From: Candidatus Woesebacteria bacterium | Lineage (GTDB): Bacteria; Patescibacteriota; Microgenomatia; UBA8517 | Assembly (NCBI GenBank): GCA_963716475.1 | Contig: OY970314.1 | Coordinates: 854,508 to 918,507 of the forward strand | Reading direction: 5' to 3' | DNA length: 64,000 nucleotides | In this document: in pieces, positions 239 to 26,041 of the stretch | Position numbering within the stretch: position 1 is the first letter of the stretch | How the letters are laid out: each line of letters opens with the position of its first letter | The notes under the pieces: model-generated | The model's input: only the letters and a program-made list of their open reading frames with translations | Told to the model about the DNA's origin: nothing | The model's database searches: none | Translations under genes and position numbers: made by a program

Positions 239-1930
239 CTATTCGGCTTCGCCTGGTTTATTCACATGAGTTGTCTTCCTTTCGCTACCAGGCACGGCCC
301 CTTGCATCTTTTGTTCATAACCTCTCAATCCCTTATAAATAGCACCTCTTATTCTGCCGGTTTCCCAACCTGTTCCCCTCATTCTATTAGCAAGGTAGCC
401 TGCCCCTGCGCCTCCAGCGATACCCGAAGCTATACCAGTAGCCCCTCCGGCGATACCCTTAACCGGTCCATAGGCTTCGCCGATTGCAGTGCCAAATGAG
501 AATCTTTCACCCATAACAAGCCCTTTAAGCATATCCGGAACTTTCGGAATTAGGGCTATTATACCAAAACTTATGGCCAAAAAGATAAGGCCTGATATTC
601 CGGAACCTGCGCCAAGTCCACTGGAGCCTATGATGCCCGGCACCCACACGTTAGGAGTATTACCAAATACGCTTGTATAATAACTGCTAATGCTAACACC
701 GGCCTGGACATATGATTGAAAAAGAGTTGCCCAGGCAAACCAAAAAAGCAGGCCGGTTACCGGAAATACGAGGATGTCGGCCATAACTCTTTTAAACCAA
801 GAACCAAAACCCATAGAAGGAACAATCGCCCCTGCCAATATTTGAACAGGGGCTGTAATAATTGATATATAAAGACTAATCAATGTTTTAATTAAAACAT
901 AGGGGACTTTAAAGGTGTACCAGACTACAAGCACTAGAACCCAGACGGTCATGATTACGAAAACCAATGCTAAAACTGCCCCAAAAATGTTAAATCCTGA
1001 AAGTAAGATTGTGGCGAAATTCGAAACGGCAGCGAAAAAAAACAAAATTGCATACCCCAGCATTTCAAAAAATACCCAAAAACCTCCCATCCAAGCATAA
1101 CCCGGCCCCGTGCCGGAGATTGTTTGGTAAGCGGCACCAATGGAAGCCCATTTGGTGAGGTTTAGCAAAAGCGCAAAGAAACCCGATATAACATACATCA
1201 GGTCAACCGCAAAACCCGCAATGGCATAGGAGAAAGTAATAAGTATCATAGCCATGATCACTTTCGGGAGAGCGGACTGAACAGAAACTACTGTTTGTGG
1301 GGAAAGTTTAACCCTGAACATAATCATGAAAGCAAAAACGATTATCACCAAAACGAGAAGAACATAAGAAATATCCCTAAAGCCCTTCCAATATGTTTGT
1401 ACCCAACTAAGACCACCGTATCCAAAGCCCTGGGCCTTTACTGTAGAAACCAAAGAGAACTTATTTAGGAGATTCTTGGTATATCCCATTCCTGATAAAT
1501 CTCTGTTATCGGTGTTAAATATAGCAGCTACGACCGATTGGTTGTTATTGCCGGGGACCGAAACGAGTTTGGGAAGAACATCAACGGCCTTACCCATAAA
1601 GGTTGTAATTGCACCGGTACAACTAGTTATATCCGCCGTGCTCGTACCAAATAGTTTTATAAAACACGTGATGGAGTTCTCGCCAACAAGGCTCTCAACC
1701 GCCCTCACGGGCAAAAAGAGGAAACTGTAAACTACCCACTGGACCTGGGCGGCAGTGTAGCGTTCGCCGAAGATTTCATCCGCCGGGGAAGTGTTTTGAT
1801 CATAAACTTTTAAATACCATTCAAAAGGATCTTGACTGTACCAGGTCTGTGCCTTGACTGGGGTTAAATAGGGAGTAAAGGAAAAAAATACAGTTAATCC
1901 AAGTAAAAATGAAATGAGCAGTTTTTTCAT
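239..1930 (-). CDS. Polytopic membrane protein with signal peptide, possibly VirB6/TrbL-like
   Basis: 563 aa. N-terminal signal peptide (MKKLLISFLLGLTVFFSF...VKAQ), an extracytoplasmic segment, at least 8 predicted TM helices and a Gly-rich C-terminal tail (GIAGGATGIASGIAGGAGAGY). The architecture resembles the VirB6/TrbL family. It is the last gene of the minus-strand pilin-like operon. Confidence 0.35.
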   Translation of the reverse strand: MKKLLISFLLGLTVFFSFTPYLTPVKAQTWYSQDPFEWYLKVYDQNTSPADEIFGERYTAAQVQWVVYSFLFLPVRAVESLVGENSITCFIKLFGTSTADITSCTGAITTFMGKAVDVLPKLVSVPGNNNQSVVAAIFNTDNRDLSGMGYTKNLLNKFSLVSTVKAQGFGYGGLSWVQTYWKGFRDISYVLLVLVIIVFAFMIMFRVKLSPQTVVSVQSALPKVIMAMILITFSYAIAGFAVDLMYVISGFFALLLNLTKWASIGAAYQTISGTGPGYAWMGGFWVFFEMLGYAILFFFAAVSNFATILLSGFNIFGAVLALVFVIMTVWVLVLVVWYTFKVPYVLIKTLISLYISIITAPVQILAGAIVPSMGFGSWFKRVMADILVFPVTGLLFWFAWATLFQSYVQAGVSISSYYTSVFGNTPNVWVPGIIGSSGLGAGSGISGLIFLAISFGIIALIPKVPDMLKGLVMGERFSFGTAIGEAYGPVKGIAGGATGIASGIAGGAGAGYLANRMRGTGWETGRIRGAIYKGLRGYEQKMQGAVPGSERKTTHVNKPGEAE

Positions 1931-1965: not shown

Positions 1966-4935
1966 CTAGTAACTATGAGCGACATTCCAAACACAAGCAT
2001 TATGACTTGTATTTCCGGAACCCCCAACCTTTTCGCAGAAATCTCCCCCGGGGCAACCGGAATATCCACCCGACGCACAACTTCCATGCGTGGTGTTGCA
2101 CGTCCAAGTGCTATTGTATGCGGTCCCATATTCCCAGACCCTGATTGCCGTCTCATAGTCGCTGCTGTCCCACGAGCAACTATTCGAGGCACCGGATGCA
2201 GCGTTTAGCGAAATTCCGTAACACGTCTTTCCGAGGAAATACGGTGAGCCGTTTTGATTTTGATTTAGAGTTTTAGCCAAAGCAAATATAGAATCCATTA
2301 AATTGCAGGGATCCGGTTGCCTGGTTGGATCCACCACCTTAACGGCATCCTTCACTGCATTCCAATAAACTTGAAAGTATGGAAGGACTCCTAAAATCGG
2401 ATCGGAATTCGGATCACAGTTTGGCATTGGAGAACAGCTCCAGGTTTGTACATTGGCCTCTGTCCAGTCGTACTTACCGGGGATATTAAATGCCCCTTCC
2501 CCAAACATTACTCCTAAAATTAGTCCCGGGGGAACGTTGTAACTTTGTGAAGCTGCCTCGACAATACTTACCAGAGTTGGTAGATTTGCTAGATTGGCAG
2601 AGCCTACTGTTCCGAGGTTGGATAATTTACAAGATCCGCTTGCTGCCGGGAGGGCGGGTAACTTACCTCCGATACAGGATATCGCCCCCGTGCTATTGGA
2701 TAGAGGGCCAAAAGAAATGGGGTCGCCATAACCCTTCGGTCTCAGAAGAGTCTGGATTCCTTTTAAGAAATATTCCGAAATTCCTCCTACGTGGGGGAGG
2801 TTTATATTGGGTGATGAGGACTGTGCGCCGGTAATGGTAACACTTGTTGAACCAGGCATGTCCTTAAGTGTTCCTATCTGGGTCCCGAGTTTTGGAAATA
2901 ATCGTTTGACAATTGCGGTAGGTCCCGCAACCAGCCTTGACCAGACATCTGTAAGTTTTGGACTGTTTGATGAGGTATAAAGATTAATATCGAAAGTACT
3001 GCTGCAGGTTTGTACAGGCGGAGGCGGTGGAATAGGGCTTGGTAGATTACAGCAGTACCAGGCTCCGGGACAGACCCCTGTACCCGTTGTTCCTCCATCA
3101 TTCCTGCATTCGACTTGATTTGGGACGCATGTTCCTGAACAGGAAACTGGTAAACCGGCGCAGCAGTAGCGAGTTCCGGGACATGTTCCCGTACCTCCTA
3201 TTCCTCCGTCACCCCTACATTCGACTAGATTGGGGACGCACGTTCCTGAACAAGTATACGTTGGAGGAGGCTCTGTACAATTAATACCGCATTGGTAACC
3301 GGTAGCACAACTCGTCTGACCGAATGATGTTGTACATACGTCTGAATTTGGATAACACGATCCGCCGAGACGTGAGCAGGGTGGATTGAACGTACAGGAA
3401 AAATTTGCCGTATATGAGAGGTTCCCCGAGAGTGGACTGGCAAAAAGATTATCTCCCCTGTTGGATCTTACCTCGAGAGTGTTGCAGGAAGAGGATGGTG
3501 CAACTGCAGTGTCCGGCCCGGTTTTTGGCTGACCTTTGCTTAAATAAGTGTCCTGGAGGGTTGATCCCAGTTCACTATTCTCCTGAGTGTGGGAGAAGAA
3601 TAGTGTGGACGGGGTTTGATTGGAAAACAGTACATTTGTGAGCGCGGCTCCGGAAACAGAATCGATCTTAATATTTCCCTGCAGGTCTTCCGTCGAAGAA
3701 AGGGGGATGTAGGGAAAAAGAGCCGAGTAAAAGTTTGGTTTTAGGGCATTATCTAGGCATAGAATTACCCCCTTGCCGCCAATGACAGGTATAAAATCAG
3801 GGGCTTTTACTTCGACACAACTATTGCCTCTCCAGTTCTGAAGGGCATGATAGTAGCTTACATAGTCCGGATAATCGGATCTTACCGGTGGCAGGTGGCC
3901 TGCCCACTGGTCTAAACGGATCTTCTGAATAAGGGGTGATAGTGAACCTTCGTAACAAGGTGCAGGAAATCCGCCTATTTCGATATTCCAAAACAAAACC
4001 GGAATGTTTATCCCATAAATGCAGGCTGCAATCTGGTTGTGGCGAATACCTGCCCCATTCAAAGAAGCAATAGCGTCCTTGACTGTTTGCGCCCTTTGTT
4101 GCTGCTGGACTTCCTGGGGAAGCAGTTTATTGATAGGCCCCGAATAGTTAATAAGTTTGTCCCGGTCAAGTACACTTACTTTTTCAGCAAGCGGGTTTAT
4201 GGTAACGCAGCAGACCTGTGCGCCAAGACATGAACTGGTTCCATCAGCCTTAACAAGAGGGTCGGGAACAGGTATTAGGGTATGGGAAAGACACATTCCT
4301 GGAACTATCTTTGATAAGTCTGAACACACCCCGGCCACACCACTATTCCCGATGCAATCGTCGCTTACAGTCAAAGGTGAATCCTCCGCTCGGTTGACAG
4401 TACCGTTAAGGTACCAGCTGACATACCCGTTAACCAAATCGGCATCGCTTAGTGGCGTGGTATAACCTGTCGGAGTTGTATAACCTGTCGGAGTTGTATA
4501 GCCCGTAGGGGTTACATTACACGACGGATCCGGAGGTTGAGAATTAGGGACACATTCCGTATTTCCCATAAAAGGAAGATTTGCGCCGTAAAGGTTTATG
4601 GTTATTAAATGTGGGGCTACATAGTCGGCATATGTACAGACATCTTTATTGCCGGTGATTACACATCTTGAGTCATTTGGATTATAAGTTTCGGAAACGG
4701 TTTCTTGTATGGTAAGGGTGTTTCCGCAAAACGTTGCGTATTCGTTCGTCGTAGCTTGACAGGTTGCGCTGGCCTGATAAGGTCTCAGAGAATGAAATTC
4801 CGGATTTCTGACTTGGTTACAGGGAACGGGCGGGTTGGGGACTTGGGCATTTACCGTGCTTATTTTCAATGAAATACAAATAAAAAAAAATCCAATTAAA
4901 AAAAACTTGAATTTCTTGAAAATTGGCAGTTTCAT
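1966..4935 (-). CDS. Large secreted Cys-rich repeat protein (989 aa), function unknown
   Basis: Signal peptide MKLPIFKKFKFFLIGFFFICISLKISTVNAQ. An in-frame 18-bp x3 tandem repeat encodes TPTGYTTPTGYTTPTGY (about 4449-4502). A ~105-bp tandem duplication gives two modules CSGTCVPNxVECRxDGGxxGTGxCPGxxYCC (about 3050-3290). There is also a poly-Pro stretch and a Cys-rich C-terminal domain. Confidence 0.6.
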   Translation of the reverse strand: MKLPIFKKFKFFLIGFFFICISLKISTVNAQVPNPPVPCNQVRNPEFHSLRPYQASATCQATTNEYATFCGNTLTIQETVSETYNPNDSRCVITGNKDVCTYADYVAPHLITINLYGANLPFMGNTECVPNSQPPDPSCNVTPTGYTTPTGYTTPTGYTTPLSDADLVNGYVSWYLNGTVNRAEDSPLTVSDDCIGNSGVAGVCSDLSKIVPGMCLSHTLIPVPDPLVKADGTSSCLGAQVCCVTINPLAEKVSVLDRDKLINYSGPINKLLPQEVQQQQRAQTVKDAIASLNGAGIRHNQIAACIYGINIPVLFWNIEIGGFPAPCYEGSLSPLIQKIRLDQWAGHLPPVRSDYPDYVSYYHALQNWRGNSCVEVKAPDFIPVIGGKGVILCLDNALKPNFYSALFPYIPLSSTEDLQGNIKIDSVSGAALTNVLFSNQTPSTLFFSHTQENSELGSTLQDTYLSKGQPKTGPDTAVAPSSSCNTLEVRSNRGDNLFASPLSGNLSYTANFSCTFNPPCSRLGGSCYPNSDVCTTSFGQTSCATGYQCGINCTEPPPTYTCSGTCVPNLVECRGDGGIGGTGTCPGTRYCCAGLPVSCSGTCVPNQVECRNDGGTTGTGVCPGAWYCCNLPSPIPPPPPVQTCSSTFDINLYTSSNSPKLTDVWSRLVAGPTAIVKRLFPKLGTQIGTLKDMPGSTSVTITGAQSSSPNINLPHVGGISEYFLKGIQTLLRPKGYGDPISFGPLSNSTGAISCIGGKLPALPAASGSCKLSNLGTVGSANLANLPTLVSIVEAASQSYNVPPGLILGVMFGEGAFNIPGKYDWTEANVQTWSCSPMPNCDPNSDPILGVLPYFQVYWNAVKDAVKVVDPTRQPDPCNLMDSIFALAKTLNQNQNGSPYFLGKTCYGISLNAASGASNSCSWDSSDYETAIRVWEYGTAYNSTWTCNTTHGSCASGGYSGCPGGDFCEKVGGSGNTSHNACVWNVAHSY

Positions 4936-4977: not shown

Positions 4978-5328
4978 TCAGGGGAGCAAGATATTGAAAC
5001 CGGTTACGTCCACCCCGGTGATTTTGTAGATAAGGACTAAAACCAGATAGGAAATGAGTATTATTACCAAACCGGTGATTGCGGAGGTTAAGGTTCTTTT
5101 GGCCCCCTCAACAGCTTTAGGGTCACCCCCCGAGGTTATAAACTTAAACCCGCCGATAATTAGAAGGATAAAAAGTACAATTCCTGCAAACCCTAAAGCA
5201 TAACCTACAATTTTTTGAAAAAGACAACCGAAATTGGCAACGGTAGCAATTCCGCTTGGGTTAACATTACACATGTGTTTGAGACTCCACCATAAAGCAA
5301 TTCTAAACCACGCAAAAAAAATCAGCAA
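4978..5328 (-). CDS. Small two-TM-helix membrane protein, VirB2/TrbC pilin-like paralog 8
   Basis: Loop motif GFKFITSGGDPKAVEGAKRTLTSAITGLVIILISYLV between two hydrophobic helices. The true start may be an internal Met (MCNVNP...). Confidence 0.5.
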   Translation of the reverse strand: MLIFFAWFRIALWWSLKHMCNVNPSGIATVANFGCLFQKIVGYALGFAGIVLFILLIIGGFKFITSGGDPKAVEGAKRTLTSAITGLVIILISYLVLVLIYKITGVDVTGFNILLP

Positions 5329-5362
5329 GAAGAAGATTCAGGCGAATTCCAAGAAAGTGAAG

Positions 5363-5710
5363 TTATATTGCCAGATTGAGATGAAGTATGTCAACGTGGA
5401 AGAAGGCGTTAATAAGAGCAACAATGGCCCAAGCGGCAAAGACTATGACAAGCCCAACAAGAGCAGCCGTAATCTGGTTTCTTGCACCCTCCGTTTGTGC
5501 TTTATCTCCACCCGAGGCGATCCAGCGGATCCCGCCTACAACGAGCATAAAGAAGAAAATAATAGCGGCGATTATTACCAGAAACCTTACGATGATAGTA
5601 ATAATGCCAGGAAAATCAAGTGTGCCAAGATTAGCAAATTGACCAGTTGGCTGAAGATTGACCTGTGTATTGCCTATTTGTGCGATTAAGTTTTTCATCT
5701 GCATAGTCAT
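5363..5710 (-). CDS. Small two-TM-helix membrane protein, VirB2/TrbC pilin-like paralog 7
   Basis: Motif GIRWIASGGDKAQTEGARNQITAALVGLVIVFAAWAIVALI. Same family as its neighbours. Confidence 0.5.
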   Translation of the reverse strand: MTMQMKNLIAQIGNTQVNLQPTGQFANLGTLDFPGIITIIVRFLVIIAAIIFFFMLVVGGIRWIASGGDKAQTEGARNQITAALVGLVIVFAAWAIVALINAFFHVDILHLNLAI

Positions 5711-5832
5711 TATGGAATCACTAAACTCGTCTTGTCAAGGGCCAATTATGACTCGCAAATCCATATTATGGTTTAAACAGGGCGGTGAGTTGTGGCAGTT
5801 GGAATGCATGGAGTTGGGACAGGGCATACTGC

Positions 5833-6156
5833 TCAGCCAAGGGTGGGCAAGGTAAGTTTTAACAGATTTACATTAAAGAACACGCCGACCAACTGAATTA
5901 TTGCGAACACCGCCAAAAGAATTACAAGTCCTATCAAAGCGCTTGTAATGGTTCCTCTAGCATCTTCAAGCTTCTGTTTATCTCCGCTTGAGGCAATCCA
6001 TTTTATGGCGCCGATTAAAAGCATGAAGAAAAAGATAATCACACCGATTATAAAACCCCATTGGATAGCGTAGGGTATAAACTTTTGCACCAAAGCCAAC
6101 CCGGCACTGCCGGATGATCCGCCGGCGGGGGAAGGTAATATTGGATTTGTTATCAT
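5833..6156 (-). CDS. Small two-TM-helix membrane protein, VirB2/TrbC pilin-like paralog 6
   Basis: Motif AIKWIASSGDKQKLEDARGTITSALIGLVILLAVFAII. The N-terminus is Gly/Ser-rich. Confidence 0.5.
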   Translation of the reverse strand: MITNPILPSPAGGSSGSAGLALVQKFIPYAIQWGFIIGVIIFFFMLLIGAIKWIASSGDKQKLEDARGTITSALIGLVILLAVFAIIQLVGVFFNVNLLKLTLPTLG

Positions 6157-6167
6157 TATTGCTGTGC

Positions 6168-6548
6168 CTACAGGTTAGCTATTATATTGAAAAGGTTTTG
6201 AATATTCAAAATACCGGTTAGGCCCAGCAAGGAGCCGACAAACTCGATTATTACAAGGGCGACAAGAACCACGACCAAGCCTATTATCCCCATAGTGATT
6301 CTTCTCCTGGCGCTCTCCAGGGCTTGCTTATCGCCCCCGGAGCTTATGATACTTATGGCGCCCGTAATAATACTAAATATTGCCCAGATAATGGCGACAA
6401 TTGTCGTTACCCCAATTACTGCAGAAATGAACTTGGAAAAAACAGTGACAGCTCCCCCGGACCCGATAGGATTATCCAAGGGTCCGTTACCGGGGCCTTT
6501 AAGCCCACCACCCGGATATAGAGGGATGTCTGCCAATAGATTTGTCAT
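6168..6548 (-). CDS. Small two-TM-helix membrane protein, VirB2/TrbC pilin-like paralog 5
   Basis: Motif SIISSGGDKQALESARRRITMGIIGLVVVLVALVII with a Gly/Pro-rich N-terminal region. The start is trimmed to the internal Met (MTNLLADIPLYPGGG) so the overlap with the upstream gene becomes ATGA-type. The ORF track gives 6168..6680. Confidence 0.45.
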   Translation of the reverse strand: MTNLLADIPLYPGGGLKGPGNGPLDNPIGSGGAVTVFSKFISAVIGVTTIVAIIWAIFSIITGAISIISSGGDKQALESARRRITMGIIGLVVVLVALVIIEFVGSLLGLTGILNIQNLFNIIANL

Positions 6549-6898
6549 GGAAAGGTTGGAATTGTTGGTTTCAGGATAAATGTCGGATCTTTGAATATTA
6601 GCTCGCCGAATATTGCGGCTAAAACAAAGGCTCCGGCTGCAAATGCCAGTCCCAGGGCTGTTTGCCAAATTTTTGCCCAAGCCCCGGCGACCTTTTTGGG
6701 ATCGTCTCCGGCAGACATAAAAGCGTATCCGGCCAAAATAAAATTAAACAAGGCATAGACTCCGGCACCAACAATTAAAATCCAAATAACGGATTGTATC
6801 AATTTCCCTATTGCGGCACCCGGGGTTGGTGCATACGTTGCAAGCGAACCCGGCAAGGTTACATTGCCAAAGGGGTTTTGTGCTAAATAATGAATCAT
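6545..6898 (-). CDS. Small two-TM-helix membrane protein, VirB2/TrbC pilin-like paralog 4
   Basis: Motif FMSAGDDPKKVAGAWAKIWQTALGLAFAAGAFVLAAI. This is the most divergent copy. Confidence 0.45.
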   Translation of the reverse strand: MIHYLAQNPFGNVTLPGSLATYAPTPGAAIGKLIQSVIWILIVGAGVYALFNFILAGYAFMSAGDDPKKVAGAWAKIWQTALGLAFAAGAFVLAAIFGELIFKDPTFILKPTIPTFP

Positions 6899-6899
6899 T

Positions 6900-7199
6900 T
6901 TAAAAAATATTCGGTATTCCTAAAAGGGAACTTATTAATTTTACTATCCAATATGATGTGAATACAATAACAAAGCCGATTACGGCTGAAGTTATGGTTT
7001 TTTTTGCCTGTTCCGCTTTTTGGGGATCGTTTTGCCCGGCCGATCCTATCATTCCAATCCCTCCCATGATGAAAAAGAAAAGTAGAATCAATCCGGAAAG
7101 AATGAAGGCGACGTTTAGAAAAATGGTGACGAGCCTACTTACGCTATTAATACTTTGGAAACTTGATGTTCCGCCGAAAAGGGTATAACCGATATTCAC
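6900..7199 (-). CDS. Small two-TM-helix membrane protein, VirB2/TrbC pilin-like paralog 3
   Basis: Motif GMIGSAGQNDPQKAEQAKKTITSAVIGFVIVFTSYWIV. Confidence 0.5.
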   Translation of the reverse strand: MNIGYTLFGGTSSFQSINSVSRLVTIFLNVAFILSGLILLFFFIMGGIGMIGSAGQNDPQKAEQAKKTITSAVIGFVIVFTSYWIVKLISSLLGIPNIF

Positions 7200-7246
7200 A
7201 AGACTATTGTATTACGATGAACACATCTAGACAAGTCAAGTGTATG

Positions 7247-7603
7247 TTATGGAGGAGTCCCGAATACCTTTCCGAAAAGCGTATTCTGAAGGTTAAAGAG
7301 CTGACCGAATATCTGGACTATAAAAAAGGCAAAGATAATAATTACAAAACCAATCAGGGCATTGGTGATTTTGGCTTGTGCAGACTGCATAGCCTTGGGG
7401 TCACCCCTCGACAACATCATCTGCAACCCTCCTATCACCAAGTAAACTAAGAGAGCAATCCCAGCGGCACCAAAAATATAAGGAAGAAGAATTGATATTA
7501 ATTTTCCAATGTTTGGTATTGTAAATTGGAGAGGTATTCCGGCCAGGTTTTGGACCGCGTCAAAGTTTAGTGCTAATTGCATAGTATTATTAACCAAAGC
7601 CAA
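7247..7603 (-). CDS. Small two-TM-helix membrane protein, VirB2/TrbC pilin-like paralog 2
   Basis: Motif LQMMLSRGDPKAMQSAQAKITNALIGFVIIIFAFFIVQIF. Confidence 0.5.
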   Translation of the reverse strand: MALVNNTMQLALNFDAVQNLAGIPLQFTIPNIGKLISILLPYIFGAAGIALLVYLVIGGLQMMLSRGDPKAMQSAQAKITNALIGFVIIIFAFFIVQIFGQLFNLQNTLFGKVFGTPP

Positions 7604-8285
7604 ATACGTTTAATCCCAGTATATCAATTCCCAGAAATTTAAGTATAAAAACAGAGAAAATTAAAAGAATCAGGCCGGAAATTGCGGATGTTAAAAGTTC
7701 CTGACCGGCCTTGAGCCTCTCGGGATTCCCCGCAGCGGTCATAATCATGAATCCGGCGTATAGCATTAAGAGAAATGCAATACCTCCGCCTATGCCCACA
7801 GCCCATCGTAAAATATTTCCCAAAAAGACCTCAGGACTACTAAAGTCGATACAGCCGATGGCGGTATTAATACTATTTGCGCTACTGCAATTAAGGTTTG
7901 TTGTGTTGGGAGTTGGAGCTGGAGTTGTGTTGGGAGTTGGAGCTGGAGTTGTTTGCGGAACTGTATGACAGGTGATAGGAGGGCTGTCTCCAACGTGCCC
8001 CCAACAATATGGGGCACTAGAGCAGCATTGGATTGCTACGCATGACACACCATTTCCAGCACACGTGGCAGAGGGTTGTTGGCACTGGCACGTTGCCAGA
8101 CTGCCTGGCCCACCTACCGTTATTTGAACGACAACGCAGGGGAGGGTGCAGCCATAATTAGGATAACCAGTAAGTTCCATGCAACCCATCACGCTTGAAG
8201 GGCAGGCTGCTAGTGCAAAAACTTTCTGGGGTAATAAAAAAGAAATCAGTAGAAGTAATATGGAGAAAACAAATATTCTTTTCAT
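7590..8285 (-). CDS. Secreted Cys-rich domain + Pro/Thr linker fused to a VirB2/TrbC pilin-like C-terminal module (first gene of the operon)
   Basis: Signal peptide MKRIFVFSILLLLISFLLPQKVFALA. The ORF track starts 27 nt upstream at 8312. A Cys-rich ~100-aa domain is followed by TPAPTPNTTPAPTPNTT, encoded by a 24-bp tandem repeat at about 7900-7960. The C-terminus is AGFMIMTAAGNPERLKAGQELLTSAISGLILLIFSVFILKFL. Confidence 0.5.
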   Translation of the reverse strand: MKRIFVFSILLLLISFLLPQKVFALAACPSSVMGCMELTGYPNYGCTLPCVVVQITVGGPGSLATCQCQQPSATCAGNGVSCVAIQCCSSAPYCWGHVGDSPPITCHTVPQTTPAPTPNTTPAPTPNTTNLNCSSANSINTAIGCIDFSSPEVFLGNILRWAVGIGGGIAFLLMLYAGFMIMTAAGNPERLKAGQELLTSAISGLILLIFSVFILKFLGIDILGLNVFGFG

Positions 8286-8346
8286 TAAATATATTCTAGA
8301 GCAATTGGACAAAAACTAAAAGTATGGGCTGGTATATCGCACTCGT

Positions 8347-8366
8347 GCGATATTTCAACGTTCAAT
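8347..8366. promoter_or_regulatory. Palindromic operator-like site ATATCGCAC-TC-GTGCGATAT in a divergent promoter region
   Basis: Perfect 9-bp inverted repeat between the pilin-like operon (minus strand) and the SpoIID-like gene (plus strand). An extended -10 TGgTATAAT lies at about 8399-8409 on the plus strand. Near-identical half-sites recur at about 10230 and 10269. Confidence 0.45.
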
Positions 8367-8410
8367 TCAGGTCGGTCAAGCCCGTCATTTTTGAATGTTG
8401 GTATAATGGA

Positions 8411-10153
8411 ATGCCTATGCTATACAAATTTTCAATTTTCAGTTTTCAATTTTTCAATAAGTTTAAATTTTTATTGTTTGGAATTCTGATATTGTTTGGG
8501 ATTTGTTTTTTGAAGTATGGTTCCTTAACGAAAGCTCAGGAGTGCCCTGCAACCGATTATCAGTGCCAAATTGACGCTATTCAAAGAAGTATCGACGCCC
8601 TTTCCCCCGCCCAGCAAAAAAACAAGGAAGACCTGGCAGCTCTTAATAAGCAGCTTGCCGATTTAAATTCCAGAATTACAAAATTGACCTCGCAACTTAA
8701 AGTTCTTGAGAATCAAATAGTAGGAAGGGAAGAAGACTTGGCTTTTACAAAGGAAATTTTTGATGAGAAAGCTAAAGAACACTATACATTTTTGAGACTT
8801 TATGACCCGATTACCCCCTTTCTTTTTTCGGATACCGCGTCACAAGCCTTTCAGGAAATAACTCTCAGACAAAGAGCGGCTGATCAGGACAGAAAGACAA
8901 TGGAACAATACGCTGCCGATTTGTCAACGCTAAATTCTGACAAAGAAACCTTAACAAAAAATAAGACCAGTCTTTCCTCACTTCAGTCGCAGGTCGCCGA
9001 GAAGCAAAAGTTTTTGGCAGGTGAGGTTGCAAAAGTGGATACGTACCTCTCCAGTTTGTCATCTAAACAGCAGGAACTTCAGGCGTTGAAGGAGGGTGGT
9101 TTTTCGACGACCGTCGGAGACGTTCCGGCATCGGCTGAGCCTTGTTCCGGCAAACCCGGATCGTCAAATTTCTGTGATCCGGGATTTAGACCCGCATTTG
9201 CCGCTTTTTCCTACGGGGCGCCACATAGAAAAGGCATGAGTCAGTACGGTGCTTACGGGAGAGCCAAGTCGGGTCAGTCTGCTGAGGATATACTCCACGC
9301 CTACTATGGAGGGATAGAGATTAAGAAGGACTATGCGACCAATATAAATATCAAGGTCCAGGGTTATGGGACTGTTGATATCGAGACGTATGTAAAGCGT
9401 ATTTATGAGATGCCGGCAAGTTGGACTGACCACGATTCGGCTGCGCTTAAGGCTCAGGCGGTTGCCGCCAGAAGCTACGCCCTGGCCTACACGAATAATG
9501 GTGCGAATTCTATTTGTGCAACAGAAGCTTGTCAGGTATATAAACCGGTAAATAAAGGCGGTGCTTGGGATGCGGCGGTAGATGCCACGAAGGGATGGGT
9601 TTTGGTTTCGGGAGGAGCACCTTTTTCGGCATGGTATGCTTCCACAGCAGGGGGTTATACATTTAGCTATTCAGCTCAGGGCTACACTACTCCTAACTTT
9701 TGGGATACTCCGGGGGGACAGGGCGGTTGGCCCAATAGCGCCTACGAGATTGCCGGCGGTTCTCCGTGGTTTTATAAAGGCTGGTTTAAGAGTAGGTCCG
9801 GGGCTTCCTGTGGAAGATCAAACCCGTGGCTAACCTCAACCGAGATGGCGGACATTTTGAATGCCAGATATGTCCTTGATGGAAACGGAGACGTGAGTCG
9901 CATCTCGCCTGTGGGAGACTGCTGGGGGGGCAATCCCTATTCGGTATCTGATTTGCAGGGAATTGGCGGATATAGTTCGGTTTCGGGTGTATCTGTCGTA
10001 TATGGAAATGACGGGTCTACTTCAAGCGTTACTTTTTCGACAAATAAGGGTACTGTAAATCTTACCGGTTCTAAATTTAAGGAAGCCTTCAATCTTAGGG
10101 CTCCCGGATACATCGGACTGAAAAGTTCGTTATTCAATATAGAGAAGCTCTGA
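8411..10153 (+). CDS. SpoIID/LytB-domain protein (putative lytic transglycosylase) with N-terminal signal peptide and coiled-coil region
   Basis: C-terminal domain with FSYGAPHRKGMSQYGAYG and MPASWTDHDSAALKAQAVAARSYAL, matching SpoIID/LytB signature blocks. The N-terminal ~200 aa are heptad/coiled-coil-like (QLADLNSRITKLTSQLKVLENQ...). The start is trimmed to MPMLYKF after the promoter. The ORF track starts at 8324. Confidence 0.6.
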   Translation: MPMLYKFSIFSFQFFNKFKFLLFGILILFGICFLKYGSLTKAQECPATDYQCQIDAIQRSIDALSPAQQKNKEDLAALNKQLADLNSRITKLTSQLKVLENQIVGREEDLAFTKEIFDEKAKEHYTFLRLYDPITPFLFSDTASQAFQEITLRQRAADQDRKTMEQYAADLSTLNSDKETLTKNKTSLSSLQSQVAEKQKFLAGEVAKVDTYLSSLSSKQQELQALKEGGFSTTVGDVPASAEPCSGKPGSSNFCDPGFRPAFAAFSYGAPHRKGMSQYGAYGRAKSGQSAEDILHAYYGGIEIKKDYATNINIKVQGYGTVDIETYVKRIYEMPASWTDHDSAALKAQAVAARSYALAYTNNGANSICATEACQVYKPVNKGGAWDAAVDATKGWVLVSGGAPFSAWYASTAGGYTFSYSAQGYTTPNFWDTPGGQGGWPNSAYEIAGGSPWFYKGWFKSRSGASCGRSNPWLTSTEMADILNARYVLDGNGDVSRISPVGDCWGGNPYSVSDLQGIGGYSSVSGVSVVYGNDGSTSSVTFSTNKGTVNLTGSKFKEAFNLRAPGYIGLKSSLFNIEKL

Positions 10154-10202: not shown

Positions 10203-10295
10203 TGTTATAACAAAAACAGGATTTTTGATATATCGCACGGGTGCGTTATAACAAAAAGGATTTTTGATATATCGCACGGGTGCGTTATAATCATC
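10203..10295 (+). repeat. Tandem ~40-bp direct repeat (2.3 copies), each carrying a -35/-10-like promoter and an operator half-palindrome
   Basis: The unit GTTATAACAAAAA(C)AGGATTTTTGATATATCGCACGGGTGC occurs twice, followed by GTTATAATCATCC. Each unit reads as TTGATA-N16-TATAAC, and the last copy reads TATAAT. Each unit embeds ATATCGCAC-GG-GTGCGTTAT. Confidence 0.6.
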
Positions 10296-10300
10296 CTAGA

Positions 10301-10876
10301 ATGCCTGACATATTTATTTCCCCTGATGAGTCGGGAAAAGGAGTCCTCGGTAAAAGTTTCTCCGCATTTTCCCTTTATCCGAGCGGTGTCGATTTTGAAA
10401 CCAGAGAAGACAAAGAAAAGATAATTCTTATGCTCCGGCAGCACCCGATTGTTAATGTTAGATGGATTTCTATGACAATCTTGCTTTTGACCGGTCCGTC
10501 GGTTCTGGGCCTTTTGGGAGTTTTTTCACTTCTTCCTGTGGGTTTTTCCCTTGTTATTACATTGGCATGGTATTTATTTACAAGCGCGTACGCAATCGAA
10601 AATTTCTTAAGTTGGTACTTCAATGTTTATTTCATAACGACAGAGGGGATAATCGATGTCGATTTTTTTAACTTGCTTGATAAAAGAGTGTCGGAAGCGG
10701 AGCTTGGCAGAATTCAGGATGTAAGTTATTCAACAAACGGAGCGTTGGGAACGACGCTGAATTTTGGTGATGTCCGGATCCAGACGGCAGCGGAAATACC
10801 GGAATTTAAGTTTGAGCTGGTACCAAATCCGGAAAAGGTGGCAAAAATTTTGGATGATTTGATAGACAAACATTAA
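10301..10876 (+). CDS. Membrane protein with bacterial PH (bPH_2/YdbT-like) domain
   Basis: Two TM helices, then IIDVDFFNLLDKRVSEAELGRIQDVSYSTNGALGTTLNFGDVRIQTA, typical of the membrane-flanked bPH_2 domain. The start is trimmed to MPDIFISP. The track ORF at 10280 would include the TATAAT box. Confidence 0.5.
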   Translation: MPDIFISPDESGKGVLGKSFSAFSLYPSGVDFETREDKEKIILMLRQHPIVNVRWISMTILLLTGPSVLGLLGVFSLLPVGFSLVITLAWYLFTSAYAIENFLSWYFNVYFITTEGIIDVDFFNLLDKRVSEAELGRIQDVSYSTNGALGTTLNFGDVRIQTAAEIPEFKFELVPNPEKVAKILDDLIDKH

Positions 10877-13456: not shown

Positions 13457-13822
13457 GGGGACGATCGGTTTCGACGGAAAGCTCTTTACAATACTGCAGG
13501 CAGACTTTGATCCTACGTCTTAATATTAGGGTTAAAAAATAAAAGCTAGGAATTTATTCCAAGCTCAACCTAGGTACGCGCAAGCGTTTGCCTAAGTTGC
13601 ATCCTGAGACCTGATTCTCGATCGGATCAACTGGGTGTAAACCATTCGAGATGCTACCTAGACTTTAATGATTTAAAGGTTTAGGTAAAAGACAAATAAA
13701 TCTTACCTTGAAATTTCTTGTTGGCTAGATAAGTTCAGGGAAAATTCAAAAACCAAATAAGCTTGTAGAAGTGTTGTTTGAAGTATTTTCGGACGCGGGT
13801 TCGATTCCCGCCGTCTCCACCA
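13457..13822 (+). ncRNA. ssrA: tmRNA (ssrA)
   Basis: The 5' end is GGGGACGATCGGTTTCGACGG. The 3' tRNA-like end is GGACGCGGGTTCGATTCCCGCCGTCTCCACCA. The candidate tag frame GCT...GCC TAA at about 13545-13595 would encode ARNLFQAQPRYAQAFA*, or AQPRYAQAFA* from a later resume codon. Confidence 0.85.
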
Positions 13823-14979: not shown

Positions 14980-15067
14980 CGGTGAGGGTGGGATTCGAAC
15001 CCACGGTAAGGAAGATCCCTACATTAGTTTTCAAGACTAACGCCATCGTCCACTCGGCCACCTCACC
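14980..15067 (-). tRNA. tRNA-Ser (anticodon TGA)
   Basis: Reverse complement GGTGAGGTGGCCGAGTGGACGATGGCGTTAGTCTTGAAAACTAATGTAGGGATCTTCCTTACCGTGGGTTCGAATCCCACCCTCACCG. Long variable arm. Anticodon loop CTTGAAA. Confidence 0.8.
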
Positions 15068-15156
15068 TGGGCGGAGGATGAGGGAGTCGAACCCACCGGC
15101 CACTTACGTGACCAAGGTTTAGCAAACCTTCGCCTTAGCCGCTCGGCATATCCTCC
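15068..15156 (-). tRNA. tRNA-Ser (anticodon GCT), CCA encoded
   Basis: Reverse complement GGAGGATATGCCGAGCGGCTAAGGCGAAGGTTTGCTAAACCTT...GGTGGGTTCGACTCCCTCATCCTCCGCCA. Anticodon loop TTGCTAA. Confidence 0.8.
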
Positions 15157-15182
15157 AAAAGGCAGTGCAATTATAACAGATT

Positions 15183-15761
15183 TTGAGGTATACTATGCGT
15201 GTCATGGATACTGCCAAAGGTCAAAAAACAGAGACAGAAAGCACTTTAAATGATGAACCGCAAGCCGTCGTTGTCAGGCGTGAGCCGGAACGGGATTTAG
15301 TTACCTGGATTGCTCCCGGAAGGCCTTTTAGAAGACGCGACAGGCAGTTTTATGTTACGACCTTTGCCATAGCCGGAATTGTCAGTCTGATTCTTTTTCT
15401 GGCCGAGGGGATAATGCCCGTTATTTTGATTATTTCTCTGGTATTTTTATACTACGTTCTTTCGACCGTTCAGCCGGATAATGTTGAATACAAAATAACC
15501 ACGAAAGGGATTAAAATCGCAGGCAAACTTACGGAGTGGCAATATCTGAACCGCTACTGGTTTTCGAAAAGGTTTGAGAGTGAGCTTATGATCGTTGATA
15601 CGGTTTTGCTTCCCGGCAGGATTGAATTTGTAATAAACCCGGAAGTTAAAGTGGAACTTAAAAAAGAGGTTTCTGCCTACATTCCGTATGAGGAGGTTCC
15701 TCCAGCCGCCCTGGATAAAATTACGAACTGGTTTGCAGCCAAGTTGCCGGGGAATAAATAA
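15183..15761 (+). CDS. Hypothetical membrane protein (2 TM)
   Basis: 192 aa with a central hydrophobic pair (FAIAGIVSLILFLAEGIMPVILIISLVFLYYVL). No recognisable motif. Confidence 0.4.
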   Translation: MRYTMRVMDTAKGQKTETESTLNDEPQAVVVRREPERDLVTWIAPGRPFRRRDRQFYVTTFAIAGIVSLILFLAEGIMPVILIISLVFLYYVLSTVQPDNVEYKITTKGIKIAGKLTEWQYLNRYWFSKRFESELMIVDTVLLPGRIEFVINPEVKVELKKEVSAYIPYEEVPPAALDKITNWFAAKLPGNK

Positions 15762-15833
15762 GCCCTCGTAGCTCAACGGATCGAGCACTGGTTTGCGGAA
15801 CCAATGATATCAGTTCAATTCTGATCGAGGGCA
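15762..15833 (+). tRNA. tRNA-Arg (anticodon read as GCG)
   Basis: GCCCTCGTAGCTCAACGGATCGAGCACTGGTTTGCGGAACCAATGATATCAGTTCAATTCTGATCGAGGGCA. Cloverleaf with loop TTGCGGA. Confidence 0.7.
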
Positions 15834-15863
15834 CTTGCGTAATATCTGGAGGTCTCGCAATTT

Positions 15864-15948
15864 GGAGGGTTCGCATAGCGGCCAATTGCACGAGTTTCGA
15901 AAACTCGAGGGAGTAATCCCTACACAGGTTCAAATCCTGTACCCTCCG
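15864..15948 (+). tRNA. tRNA-Ser (anticodon CGA)
   Basis: GGAGGGTTCGCATAGCGGCCAATTGCACGAGTTTCGAAAACTCGAGGGAGTAATCCCTACACAGGTTCAAATCCTGTACCCTCCG. Long variable arm. Confidence 0.8.
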
Positions 15949-16070
15949 CTCGTCGTAACTAAACATTGCTAACCGTTTCTCAAAACTAAAAGTTTTAGAA
16001 ACTAGCGCAAGTTTGTTACTCCTCTCGAAATTGCGGTGCAATTTCGTTTGGGAGCATAGACACAATAATC

Positions 16071-16523
16071 ATGAACAACAAGAATAATCAGCAAATAACA
16101 GTAGGGGGAGCGATAGTTTTTAGGGATAATCGTGGAAAACGTCAGTTTTTGCTTGTAAAAACAAAGGATGAAGGAGACTGGGAAATCCCCAAGGTTATCG
16201 TAAGAAAAGGCGAGTCATCTGTGCGTTCCGTAATCAGACTAACCGGGGAACAGGGAGGAATGACGGCCAGGGTGCTTGAGGAAGCTGGAAGAGCAACCGG
16301 AACGACTATTCTAAACGGTAAGTCCATTCCCCAGAAGTATTATTACTATATTATGCTTCAAAGAGGAGGGCCGAGCGAGCTTATCGGGTTCGCGGAATTT
16401 AAATGGCTGGAGTACGCGGAAGCGGTGAAAAGGGTAATCCTTAAAAGAGAGAAAGACATGTTTAAATTGGCGCGTGAGGTTTTAAAACAGTGGGAAAAAA
16501 CGCACAAAATCAAACTATATTAA
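16071..16523 (+). CDS. Nudix-fold protein with degenerate Nudix box
   Basis: 150 aa. GESSVRSVIRLTGEQGG only loosely matches Gx5Ex7REUxEExGU. Confidence 0.4.
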   Translation: MNNKNNQQITVGGAIVFRDNRGKRQFLLVKTKDEGDWEIPKVIVRKGESSVRSVIRLTGEQGGMTARVLEEAGRATGTTILNGKSIPQKYYYYIMLQRGGPSELIGFAEFKWLEYAEAVKRVILKREKDMFKLAREVLKQWEKTHKIKLY

Positions 16524-17011
16524 ACCGTGAGTTTTCTTCGGGTGGGGCCGTCTTCAGGGGTGATGAATGGTTGATAACAAGATCGTCTGCAAGCAAACTC
16601 TATCCTAAAGCAATTTGGAGACTTCCGAAAGGTTGGATCGATAATGTTACACCTGAAATTCCCGGACCAATGGCAAGCGGAAAGCTGAGGGCTGATGAAG
16701 AGTCGCTGCAAAAAGGTGCCCTGCGGGAAGTGAGAGAAGAAGGAGGAATTGAAGCTAAGATTGTTAAAAAGATCGGAACAGCGAAGTATTTTTTTAACGC
16801 GCCCGATAAAGGTAGAATCTTAAAGTTTGTTACATTTTATTTAATGGAATATGTAGGTGATTTACCGGAGGGTTATGATGAAGAAACATCCGAGATCGCC
16901 TGGTTGCCATTTGAAGAAGCCTATAAAAAACTTTCTTTCTCGGGTGAAAAGCAAATACTCAAAAAAGCGAAAGAACTTCTGGCCCCCGTAGCTCAACGGA
17001 TAAGCAAATAG
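16490..17011 (+). CDS. Nudix hydrolase
   Basis: Nudix box EESLQKGALREVREEGGI. The last ~9 codons (APVAQRISK*) are encoded by a tRNA-like 5' fragment. Confidence 0.65.
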   Translation: MGKNAQNQTILNREFSSGGAVFRGDEWLITRSSASKLYPKAIWRLPKGWIDNVTPEIPGPMASGKLRADEESLQKGALREVREEGGIEAKIVKKIGTAKYFFNAPDKGRILKFVTFYLMEYVGDLPEGYDEETSEIAWLPFEEAYKKLSFSGEKQILKKAKELLAPVAQRISK

Positions 17012-17047
17012 CTTGTCGGTTGTTCTACAGGTGCTCATTAGAAATTC

Positions 17048-17119
17048 GCCCCCGTAGCTCAACGGATAGAGTAGGAGTTTCCGGAACTTCTGATAGGTGT
17101 TCAATTCACCTCGGGGGCA
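17048..17119 (+). tRNA. tRNA-Arg (anticodon CCG)
   Basis: GCCCCCGTAGCTCAACGGATAGAGTAGGAGTTTCCGGAACTTCTGATAGGTGTTCAATTCACCTCGGGGGCA. Its first 21 nt are duplicated at about 16982-17002. Confidence 0.8.
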
Positions 17120-17243
17120 CACTCGGTACAGAATCAGTTATAATACAATTTCTGGAGGAGTCACATAAGTAAACTTCGCCCAATGGCGTAAGTCTACTCT
17201 TTGCTTTGCAAAGAGATCTTGGGTGACTTTTCTTTAAAATCTG

Positions 17244-17325
17244 GAGGAGTCACCTAGCGGCTATGGTACGCGCTTGGAAAGCGCGCGGGCGTAAGCCCTC
17301 GCGGGTTCGAGTCCCGCCTCCTCCG
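17244..17325 (+). tRNA. tRNA-Ser (anticodon GGA)
   Basis: GGAGGAGTCACCTAGCGGCTATGGTACGCGCTTGGAAAGCGCGCGGGCGTAAGCCCTCGCGGGTTCGAGTCCCGCCTCCTCCG. Long variable arm. Its 5' end (TCTGGAGGAGTCAC) is duplicated at about 17147-17161. Confidence 0.8.
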
Positions 17326-25968: not shown

Positions 25969-26041
25969 TTCCCCGGTAGCTCAGCGGTAGAGCGGATTCC
26001 TGTTAAGAATAAGGTCGCTGGTCCGAATCCAGCCCGGGGAG
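25969..26041 (+). tRNA. tRNA-Asn (anticodon GTT)
   Basis: TCCCCGGTAGCTCAGCGGTAGAGCGGATTCCTGTTAAGAATAAGGTCGCTGGTCCGAATCCAGCCCGGGGAG. U1-A72, as in bacterial tRNA-Asn. Confidence 0.8.

Follow-up and report, generated by a model that had tools for sequence, protein, structure and literature searches.

Patescibacteria carry type IV secretion systems (T4SSs) akin to the monoderm MPF-FATA class (Quinonero-Coronel et al., PMC12102498). Pilin arrays have been noted especially in Microgenomatia, where VirB1 and VirB6 are nearly undetectable; VirB1 was mostly undetected near virB4 with the MPF-FATA profiles, and peptidase and lysozyme homologues beside virB4 were reported to be essential (PMC12102498). 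In Southlakia, the T4SS cluster, pilins included, was essential by transposon sequencing, and one of its products, SEML1_0006, was annotated from structure as lysozyme-like plus cysteine-proteinase (PMC10633639, supplementary table). Here we describe a gene from a Candidatus Woesebacteria bacterium (assembly GCA_963716475.1, contig OY970314.1, positions 854,508 to 918,507 of the forward strand). In this stretch of 64,000 nucleotides (nt), hereafter the window, with positions counted from its first letter, a protein of 989 amino acids (aa) is encoded directly after an array of VirB2-like pilin genes. The locus is the MPF-FATA-like T4SS of Patescibacteria described in PMC12102498. The protein consists of a strongly conserved, unannotated scaffold followed by a C-terminal domain that is likely lysozyme-like and that is exchanged between strains as a cassette.

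The nearest counterparts in monoderm bacteria are the VirB1-type hydrolases PrgK (pCF10), TraG (pIP501), CwlT (ICEBs1), TrsG and CD419. Like these, the 989-aa protein is encoded in a T4SS cluster and starts with a signal or anchor; both have a lysozyme- or SLT-like domain, a predicted one in the present case, and both are much larger than the VirB1 of diderm bacteria. Unlike typical monoderm members, it has no second domain of the CHAP, NlpC/P60 or LytM kind: Pfam, NCBIfam and Foldseek searches found no such peptidase. Its glycosidase-like domain is C-terminal, comes after ~720 aa of conserved scaffold without a recognisable fold, and is swapped between strains. The gene follows a VirB2-like pilin array, whereas the Gram-positive T4SSs are without such an array. 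SEML1_0006 resembles it as a T4SS-cluster protein of the candidate phyla radiation (CPR) with lysozyme-like domain(s), and the Southlakia cluster, which is essential for epibiotic growth, also has a pilin array, a PrgI-like gene and VirB6-like genes. SEML1_0006 differs in having two lysozyme-like domains (PF18013 and PF01832) plus a cysteine proteinase and in lying at the other end of its cluster, and the scaffold of the 989-aa protein was not seen outside Microgenomates-type records. A further large, Cys-rich, exported, T4SS-associated protein is TraN of the F plasmid, whose ends are conserved and whose recipient specificity is determined by a variable region; it is an outer-membrane protein of diderm bacteria and has no enzymatic domain. 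PDB sequence searches and Foldseek revealed no similarity between TraN and the 989-aa protein.

Architecture of the protein

The gene was called identically in the list of open reading frames (ORFs) of the window and on a Logan contig (L001) that is 100% identical to the window over 10,247 nt. A family alignment (A1) was assembled from 121 members, the 989-aa protein and 120 homologues, and a full-length AF2 model built on it had a mean predicted local distance difference test score (pLDDT) of 80 and a predicted template modelling score (pTM) of 0.67, with most of the scaffold above 90 pLDDT. The main parts are as follows.

1966..4935, minus strand: whole gene, 989 aa plus stop
4846..4935, minus strand: signal peptide, aa 1-30 (MKLPIFKKFKFFLIGFFFICISLKISTVNA, then Q), the only hydrophobic segment; cleavage site placed by inspection
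4555..4845, minus strand: scaffold part 1, aa 31-127; near-invariant columns, motifs PEFHSLRPYQA and LPFMGNTE, long beta-hairpins
3397..4143, minus strand: scaffold part 2, aa 265-513; present in each of the 120 homologues, pLDDT mostly 90-98
2686..3003, minus strand: scaffold part 3, aa 645-750; ends in the junction motif GIQTLLRPKGYG
2725..2760, minus strand: junction motif GIQTLLRPKGYG, aa 726-737; family form GIQTxLRPKG(Y/F)G
1969..2673, minus strand: C-terminal domain, aa 755-989, cassette type TA; resembles glycoside hydrolase family 23 (GH23) and lytic transglycosylases by model and profile
2497..2499, minus strand: codon of Glu813, the putative catalytic acid, in the motif VPPGLILGVMFGEGAFN; conserved without exception in 24 type-TA domains

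The sole hydrophobic segment is N-terminal and ends VNA|Q, with an AF2 helix at aa 9-22, and a hydrophobic N-terminus followed by AQ is kept in the family consensus; no further membrane segment was seen. The protein contains 51 Cys (5.2%). The single N-terminal hydrophobic segment and 11 near-invariant Cys in the scaffold support export, and the protein, of ~100 kDa, would be Sec-exported and rich in disulfides. An earlier reading of the letters and their ORFs by a model, the original prediction, had described a 989-aa secreted, Cys-rich protein, the largest product of a pilin locus, with poly-Pro and many paired cysteines. The ORF, the N-terminal hydrophobic segment, the Cys content and the adjoining pilin genes all agree with that description, as do the gene calls of the locus for size, a PIPPPPPV run at aa 634-641 (within window positions 3013-3042) and three CC pairs at aa 242-243, 591-592 and 628-629. 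The pilins are indeed present; their kind is more specific, as they are VirB2-type T4SS pilins (PF18895) and not those of type IV or sortase pili.

The C-terminal domain

The C-terminal 235 aa were shared by only ~42 of the 120 homologues. Modelled alone with AF2, the domain reached a pLDDT of 90.8 and a pTM of 0.91. Its top Foldseek match in the PDB was 3w6e, the GH23 chitinase of Ralstonia A-471 (probability 0.85, target-normalised TM 0.58, E 0.21), followed by the T7 ejectosome, the muramidase effector Tse3, MltF and FlgJ. Weak Foldseek matches of the full-length model were led by SltB1, MltF, Slt, SltB2 and SltB3, mostly lytic transglycosylases. An alignment of 24 type-TA domains (A2), used as a profile against PDB sequences, matched MltC (E 0.089), Tse3, a phage tape-measure lytic domain and Slt35. 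All of these profile matches ran through the catalytic-helix motif AAxxYxVPPxLILGVMxGEGxFNP and placed Glu813 on the catalytic Glu.

Glu813 aligns with the Glu of the MltC motif and, by hhalign, with the Glu of cassette types T3 and T2; the matching residue of E. coli MltC is Glu217. The residue that follows Glu813 is Gly in most type-TA members and Ser in two. Because two models, two methods and a conserved Glu agree, the C-terminal domain is likely lysozyme-like, and it is predicted to cleave peptidoglycan. At the same position, homologues P0050, P0096 and P0102 have the Pfam domain SLT_3 'lysozyme like' (E 1e-10 to 2.5e-7).

Type TA may share a helical lysozyme-like fold with GH23, which includes goose-type lysozymes, MltC, Slt70 and the Ralstonia A-471 chitinase, and with SLT_3 (PF18896). 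Its GH23-like features are a hydrophobic helix, the invariant Glu and a small residue after it. Unlike GH23, it has 12 Cys and long extra loops, and it extends over 235 aa compared with a core fold of ~150 aa.

Exchange of C-termini between strains

The C-termini of the 120 homologues fell into at least six sequence types.

Type TA (the 989-aa protein), 42 members: linked to lysozymes by structure and motif
Type T0, 46 members: motif WLNESGASNY; no lysozyme link made
Type T1, 10 members: hhalign to T3, 96.6%
Type T2, 8 members: hhalign to TA, 58%, Glu aligned
Type T3, 7 members: hhalign to TA, 85%, Glu aligned
Type T4, 3 members: Pfam SLT_3
Singleton type, 1 member: no lysozyme link

Profile searches of the PDB with types T1 and T3 returned nothing. 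An M23-like C-terminus suspected by eye in P0059 had no Pfam match, and no claim is made for it.

When mapped on the scaffold's neighbour-joining tree, the types were distributed almost at random and required no fewer than 50 changes, where shuffled labels required 60 on average. The same type was found in only 4 of the 9 pairs whose scaffolds were 90-100% identical. Homologues P0074, P0089 and P0085, which come from three different sequencing runs, were ~98% identical through GIQTALRPKG and unrelated beyond it; the DNA of their genes was 97% identical for 1837 nt and then divergent. In near-identical strains, sequence identity stopped exactly after the junction motif. The C-terminal domain is therefore a swappable cassette that is exchanged between strains.

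The mosaic extended to the rest of the locus. Between two such strains, identity was 90-100% for pilin 4, the last pilin and the scaffold, and 50-76% for pilins 5-7. For the nucleotide sequences of the C-terminal domain and of the membrane gene downstream it was 28-72%, and for the membrane protein sequence 36-40%. Strain variation in the locus falls on the predicted wall-cutting end, on several of the pilins and on the membrane protein next to the big gene.

Two of the cassette types were accompanied by a small gene. In each of the 12 evaluable T4 loci, a small additional ORF with a membrane anchor, g0, separated the big gene from the membrane gene, and both evaluable T2 loci had a different one, g1. 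Among loci with the membrane gene within 1.5 kb, an intervening ORF of at least 100 aa was seen in 0 of 12 for TA, 1 of 26 for T0 and 0 of 5 for T1. The g0 ORF was listed in L010, L017, L030, L032, L046, L047, L049, L052, L059, L065, L075 and L080, and g1 in L027, L054 and, beyond the two T2 loci counted, L084. Both are ~145-200 aa in size and were seen only with T4 or T2 cassettes. They could be inhibitor or immunity-like partners, or could simply be clade-specific. At the scale of species, cassette type and downstream membrane protein did not co-vary, and the membrane protein was dropped as a candidate immunity-like partner on this ground.

This arrangement invites comparison with the polymorphic toxins, such as CdiA-CT after VENN, Rhs-CT after PxxxxDPxGL, LXG and MafB. 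The big gene is like these in having a conserved N-terminal region, a junction motif and unrelated C-termini that near-identical strains swap; some types also have a small gene beside them. It is unlike them in that most cassette types have no adjacent immunity-like gene, that orphan cassettes and paralogues are absent from the window, and that every classifiable cassette is predicted to be a wall-glycan enzyme: none is a nuclease, deaminase or pore-former.

The scaffold and its distribution

The scaffold kept in all members, ~600 aa as judged from the alignment and BLAST coverage, is made up of aa 31-127, 167-184, 265-513 and 645-750. Among the 121 sequences it has 22 invariant and ~100 near-invariant columns, 11 Cys included. 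Part 1 was modelled with pLDDT 78-98 and with strands at 66-83 and 97-114. Part 2 carries the motifs SGPINKLLP, RHxQI, FPYIPLSSTED, FFxHxxE and VRSNxGDxLF, with G266, P267, K270, P350, W368, G370, C373, C393, H449, C484 and G494 invariant. In part 3 the invariant residues are P659, P681, G717, Y722, Q728, T729, L731, R732, P733, G735 and G737. No Pfam match to the scaffold was found, nor any Foldseek match in the PDB or BFVD, and the full model searched against BFVD gave noise only. A possible M14-like zinc site (H449-x-x-E452 plus H715) was dropped, as Foldseek matched no peptidase fold.

The family is unannotated and was met almost exclusively in Woesebacteria and Microgenomates. More than 276 homologues were counted in a word-indexed search, and an exhaustive HMMER search gave 718 clusters when grouped at 50% identity, of which 506 had an E-value of 1e-30 or better. 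The whole protein had no Pfam, NCBIfam or PHROG match, neither the protein nor the family profile matched any PDB sequence, and the family is not described in PMC12102498, in PMC10633639 or in the further literature searched. As a large domain of unknown function, it lends itself to a curated family model.

Named family records were Woesebacteria, Microgenomates or Patescibacteria. Many GTDB species representatives titled 'uncultured Gammaproteobacteria bacterium' (L008, L010, L012, L013, L017 and others) carry a complete Woesebacteria-type pilin/T4SS locus, as does one record each titled Alphaproteobacteria and Ignavibacteria; such titles seem to be placeholders or wrong taxonomy.

Two long members, P0012 and P0173, have an additional NAGPA phosphodiester glycosidase domain (N-terminal 90-275, E 3.5e-25 and 1.9e-32). 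Matches to SGNH/GDSL in P0182 and to BNR/BNR_4 in P0234 were weak and below cut-off. For the closest relative, on JGI contigs L082 (1-1503) and L083 (1-1444), the ORF is open to the first base and was called as a 296-aa gene. Since these ORFs run open to the contig start, the short 'homologues' P0121-P0130 are probably truncated gene calls and not stand-alone lysozymes.

Length-variable sites and their repeats

Three sites varied in length across the family: the linker (0-39 aa), insert 1 (10-85 aa) and insert 2 (11-160 aa). All repeats of the 989-aa protein fall in these sites, which are occupied here as follows.

4438..4554, minus strand: variable T/P-rich linker, aa 128-166; 39 aa compared with a family median of 16
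4459..4512, minus strand: TPTGYT x3 repeat, aa 142-159, inside the T/P-rich linker; from Tandem Repeats Finder (TRF) and sequence
4144..4383, minus strand: insert 1, aa 185-264, lineage-specific; 80 aa and 6 Cys compared with a family median of 17 aa and 0 Cys
3004..3396, minus strand: insert 2, aa 514-644, hypervariable; 131 aa and 20 Cys, in the family 11-160 aa, median 46
3277..3378, minus strand: 'beta' Cys mini-module, aa 520-553 (CSRLGGSCYPNSDVCTTSFGQTSCATGYQCGINC), a module type shared with relatives
3148..3258, minus strand: 'alpha' Cys mini-module, copy 1, aa 560-596; module hidden Markov model (HMM) E = 9.6e-13
3037..3147, minus strand: 'alpha' Cys mini-module, copy 2, aa 597-633; module HMM E = 4e-14, followed by the poly-Pro run

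TRF reported the TPTGYT repeat at 4460-4500 (period 18, 2.3 copies, 100% match, score 82). A single base separates copies 2 and 3, and copies 1 and 2 have 4 synonymous differences. Relatives have a single PTG where the 989-aa protein has TPTGYT x3, and AF2 modelled the stretch as disordered, with pLDDT below 50. Insert 1 was modelled with pLDDT 74-85. Insert 2, itself below 50, sits between two long beta-strands (502-516 and 643-659) with pLDDT above 90.

The two alpha copies share 75 of 111 nt and 24 of 37 aa, with 7 synonymous and 13 non-synonymous codon differences, and TRF did not report the pair even at score 30. The pair is a true duplication, but an old one. One alpha module was found in 12 of the 120 homologues and two in none; two alpha modules plus beta occurred only in the 989-aa protein (1 of 121). 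The closest relative found, from another species (61% identity; from the C-domain profile search), has one alpha and no beta. The beta module is the sole module at the insert-2 site in P0002, P0004, P0005, P0012, P0015, P0056, P0057 and others.

No known Cys-rich module was recognised when inserts 1 and 2 were compared with Pfam at E up to 10: insert 1 had no match, and the only match was a chance one to a conotoxin (E 7.9). A hevein/ChtBD1-like or granulin-like module was considered and dropped for want of a meaningful Pfam match at that threshold.

The original prediction had seen in these repeats a contingency or size-variable surface adhesin with recent tandem duplications. The in-frame 18-bp TPTGYT x3 repeat is real and lies ~10 nt from the place given for it (about 4449-4502). 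The module pair exists as well, with a unit of 111 bp in place of ~105 bp and at 3037-3258; at 68% nucleotide and 65% amino acid identity, and unreported by TRF, it is neither nearly identical nor recent. Neither TRF nor the sequence showed a hypermutable simple-sequence tract or a long near-identical array in the gene, and three 18-bp units in a disordered linker plus two old 111-bp copies give no support for a contingency locus. The very strong conservation of ~600 residues is likewise unlike a simple variable adhesin. The lysozyme-like fold proposed as a thing to look for in the C-terminal 300 aa was indicated by AF2 and Foldseek and by the PDB profile search. As grounds for abandoning the adhesin, the original prediction had named an enzymatic fold together with invariant repeat number: an enzymatic fold is predicted, for the C-terminal quarter only, and the comparison of copy number across strains extended to a single other contig (Logan), 100% identical to the window. 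Size variation as a function was not supported, no strain-level length polymorphism having turned up in that one identical contig. The exact protein was absent from a 15-billion protein collection by cluster look-up, and a wobble-tolerant DNA pattern for the repeat flank had 0 matches in JGI metagenomes. Two features had been overlooked by the earlier reading: the third, different Cys module (aa 520-553) just upstream of the pair, and the 80-aa, 6-Cys insert at aa 185-264.

Neighbouring genes

The gene order of the locus is SpoIID, then 7-9 VirB2-like pilins, then the big gene, then a polytopic membrane protein. Synteny was counted over 58 evaluable species-representative loci, and machine genes over the 50 loci of at least 20 kb. 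SpoIID was present in 58 of 58 loci, 7-9 PF18895 pilin genes lay upstream in 57 of 58, and the membrane protein followed directly downstream in 51 of 58. Within 10 kb downstream, a PrgI-like gene was found in 45 of 50 loci, a TraC-like gene in 44 and a VirB4-like ATPase in 40. The big gene is a single-copy core gene in conserved chromosomal synteny and is not on an island. Its neighbours in the window are listed below.

239..1930, minus strand: downstream partner, 563-aa polytopic membrane protein; 35-bp gap to the big gene
4978..8312, minus strand: 8 VirB2-like T4SS pilin paralogues (PF18895); 42-bp gap to the big gene
7590..8312, minus strand: first pilin gene, a fusion; linker repeat at 7900-7952
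8324..10153, plus strand: 609-aa SpoIID-domain protein (PF08486, E = 3.5e-15), divergent from the pilin array
13457-13822: tmRNA (Rfam RF00023, 141.5 bits)
14980-17325 and 25970-26041: seven tRNA genes

The 563-aa protein has a signal or anchor, an extracytoplasmic domain of ~160 aa and ~8 hydrophobic segments, with no Pfam match, and could represent the divergent VirB6 that is 'missing' from Microgenomatia. Its homologues in L084, L085 and L086 are 36-40% identical to each other, and the big-gene scaffold there is 97% identical.

Since 57 of the 58 species representatives have 7-9 pilin genes, the pilin set is conserved and not a recent tandem amplification. Between L085 and L086, whose backbones are ~97% identical, pilins 5-7 were 50-76% identical and pilin 4 and the last pilin 90-98%; some pilins appear strain-variable. 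The first pilin has a signal peptide, a Cys-rich N-terminal domain of ~90 aa with the stretch CAGNGVSCVAIQCCSSAPYCWG, a TPAPTPNT x2 linker and the PF18895 domain. Its linker is a perfect 24-bp x2.2 repeat and the second recently expanded T/P linker of the locus.

The 609-aa SpoIID protein has a membrane anchor and a long coiled coil, and its gene is the second cell-wall-remodelling gene fixed in the locus. Between it and a bPH_2-domain gene (10280-10876) lies a 39-bp x2.2 tandem repeat (95% match, 10204-10290). No convincing terminator was seen in the intergenic gaps, and promoter-like sites occurred at chance rate. The window is chromosomal DNA: its markers include the tmRNA, the tRNAs, DnaG, ribonucleotide reductase and two class A penicillin-binding proteins.

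Discussion

We favour the view that the 989-aa protein is an exported component of a T4SS-like pilus cluster and that its C-terminal domain cleaves peptidoglycan, and we consider this reasonably probable. The protein would then be a functional counterpart of VirB1, PrgK, TraG of pIP501 or CwlT: the scaffold would retain it at the pilus or the secretion machinery, leaving the C-terminal domain to cut the glycan strands of peptidoglycan with Glu813 as catalytic acid.

Several points weigh against this view. No fold or sequence match of the C-terminus is significant alone (best Foldseek E 0.21, HMMER 0.089), the curated SLT and lysozyme models of Pfam (PF01464, PF13406, PF18896 and others) matched nothing in the whole protein at E up to 0.1, and the isolated domain had no Pfam match at E up to 10. 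Unlike in GH23, a significant sequence match is lacking and Gly replaces the Ser or Thr that usually follows the catalytic Glu in family-1 lytic transglycosylases. The commonest type, T0 (46 of 120), gave only chance-level matches to GH1 when compared with the PDB by profile. The scaffold, three quarters of the protein, is without recognisable function. The window shows the pilin array and the membrane protein only, with VirB4 and the machine genes beyond its left end; because the locus runs off that end, the T4SS linkage is extrapolated from relatives for this genome. No immunity-like gene lies beside the TA cassette, which leaves a 35-bp gap to the membrane gene, and the Sec signal argues against transport through the T4SS channel.

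The protein might be a housekeeping autolysin of the VirB1 type that opens the producer's own wall for assembly of the pilus or T4SS, with a polymorphism that is neutral or driven by phages or inhibitors. The fixed operon position between pilins and membrane protein, the Sec signal, the SpoIID-type wall-remodelling gene that is also fixed in the locus and the lack of an immunity-like gene at the TA cassette are all in keeping with such a role, for which VirB1, PrgK, TraG and CwlT provide precedents in monoderm T4SSs (PMC12102498). However, unrelated catalytic types on ~98% identical scaffolds would be unexpected for a cell's own invariant wall, a small additional gene with a membrane anchor accompanies every T4 (12/12) and T2 (2/2) cassette, the Cys-rich inserts are hypervariable, and some members have extra envelope-glycan domains. 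We regard the housekeeping role as possible but rather doubtful. Given the cassette exchange, the variable Cys inserts and the small co-occurring genes, we lean slightly towards the wall of a host or neighbour and not that of the producer. A fuller and more tentative version of the wall-cutting hypothesis is that the new-fold scaffold docks on the pilus, that disulfide-knotted knobs recognise the host, that the swappable wall-cutting end fits the wall chemistry of the host, and that some types travel with a membrane-anchored protector.

The exchange of C-termini could also mark a classical polymorphic toxin for competition among bacteria, in which a conserved N-terminal region serves for delivery, the C-terminal toxin varies and a cognate immunity gene goes with it. 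A cassette swap exactly after a conserved junction motif is what such a system would show; sequence and fold searches both brought up the type VI secretion muramidase effector Tse3, and small membrane-anchored ORFs accompany T4 and T2. Yet in 42 of 43 TA, T0 and T1 loci with the membrane gene within 1.5 kb there is no ORF of at least 100 aa before it, the window holds no orphan cassettes or paralogues, cassette type does not track the downstream membrane protein, and the gene is a single-copy syntenic core gene off any island. For the 989-aa member this explanation seems improbable. The adhesin or pilus-tip protein of the original prediction, in which the Cys modules and TPTGYT would vary in copy number for binding or reach and the rest would form a stalk, we also think unlikely, though somewhat less so. 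An exported, Cys-rich protein adjoining 8 pilin genes would suit it, all repeats lie where length varies strongly between species, insert 2 between its long strands fits display at the tip of a hairpin, and the 989-aa protein alone of 121 has two alpha modules plus beta; adhesion is, moreover, compatible with an enzymatic C-terminus. The repeats themselves amount to only 3x 18 bp and 2x 111 bp (68% identical), with no hypermutable tract; the TPTGYT stretch was modelled as a disordered linker, and the single other contig, being identical, offered no strain-level length variant. Conservation of the scaffold far exceeds that of known adhesin stalks, the C-terminus is enzyme-like, there is no cell-wall anchor or C-terminal membrane segment, and Foldseek found no similarity to a solved adhesin or to VirB5.

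Wall hydrolases associated with T4SSs and polymorphism of C-terminal cassettes are both known principles. What is new here is their combination, together with the unannotated scaffold family, the LRPKG junction and the position right after a VirB2-like pilin array. The matter bears on the way in which CPR/Patescibacteria attach to host cells and draw on them, and a T4SS-like cluster with pilins is essential in the one genetically tractable species concerned. The family is a candidate for the VirB1-type activity that is mostly missing near virB4, in the Woesebacteria and Microgenomates where it is found. If the fuller hypothesis is true, Woesebacteria would use the locus to open the walls of the bacteria on which they live. 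The variable parts of the locus, namely the predicted wall-cutting end, several pilins and the membrane protein, offer testable handles on host specificity.

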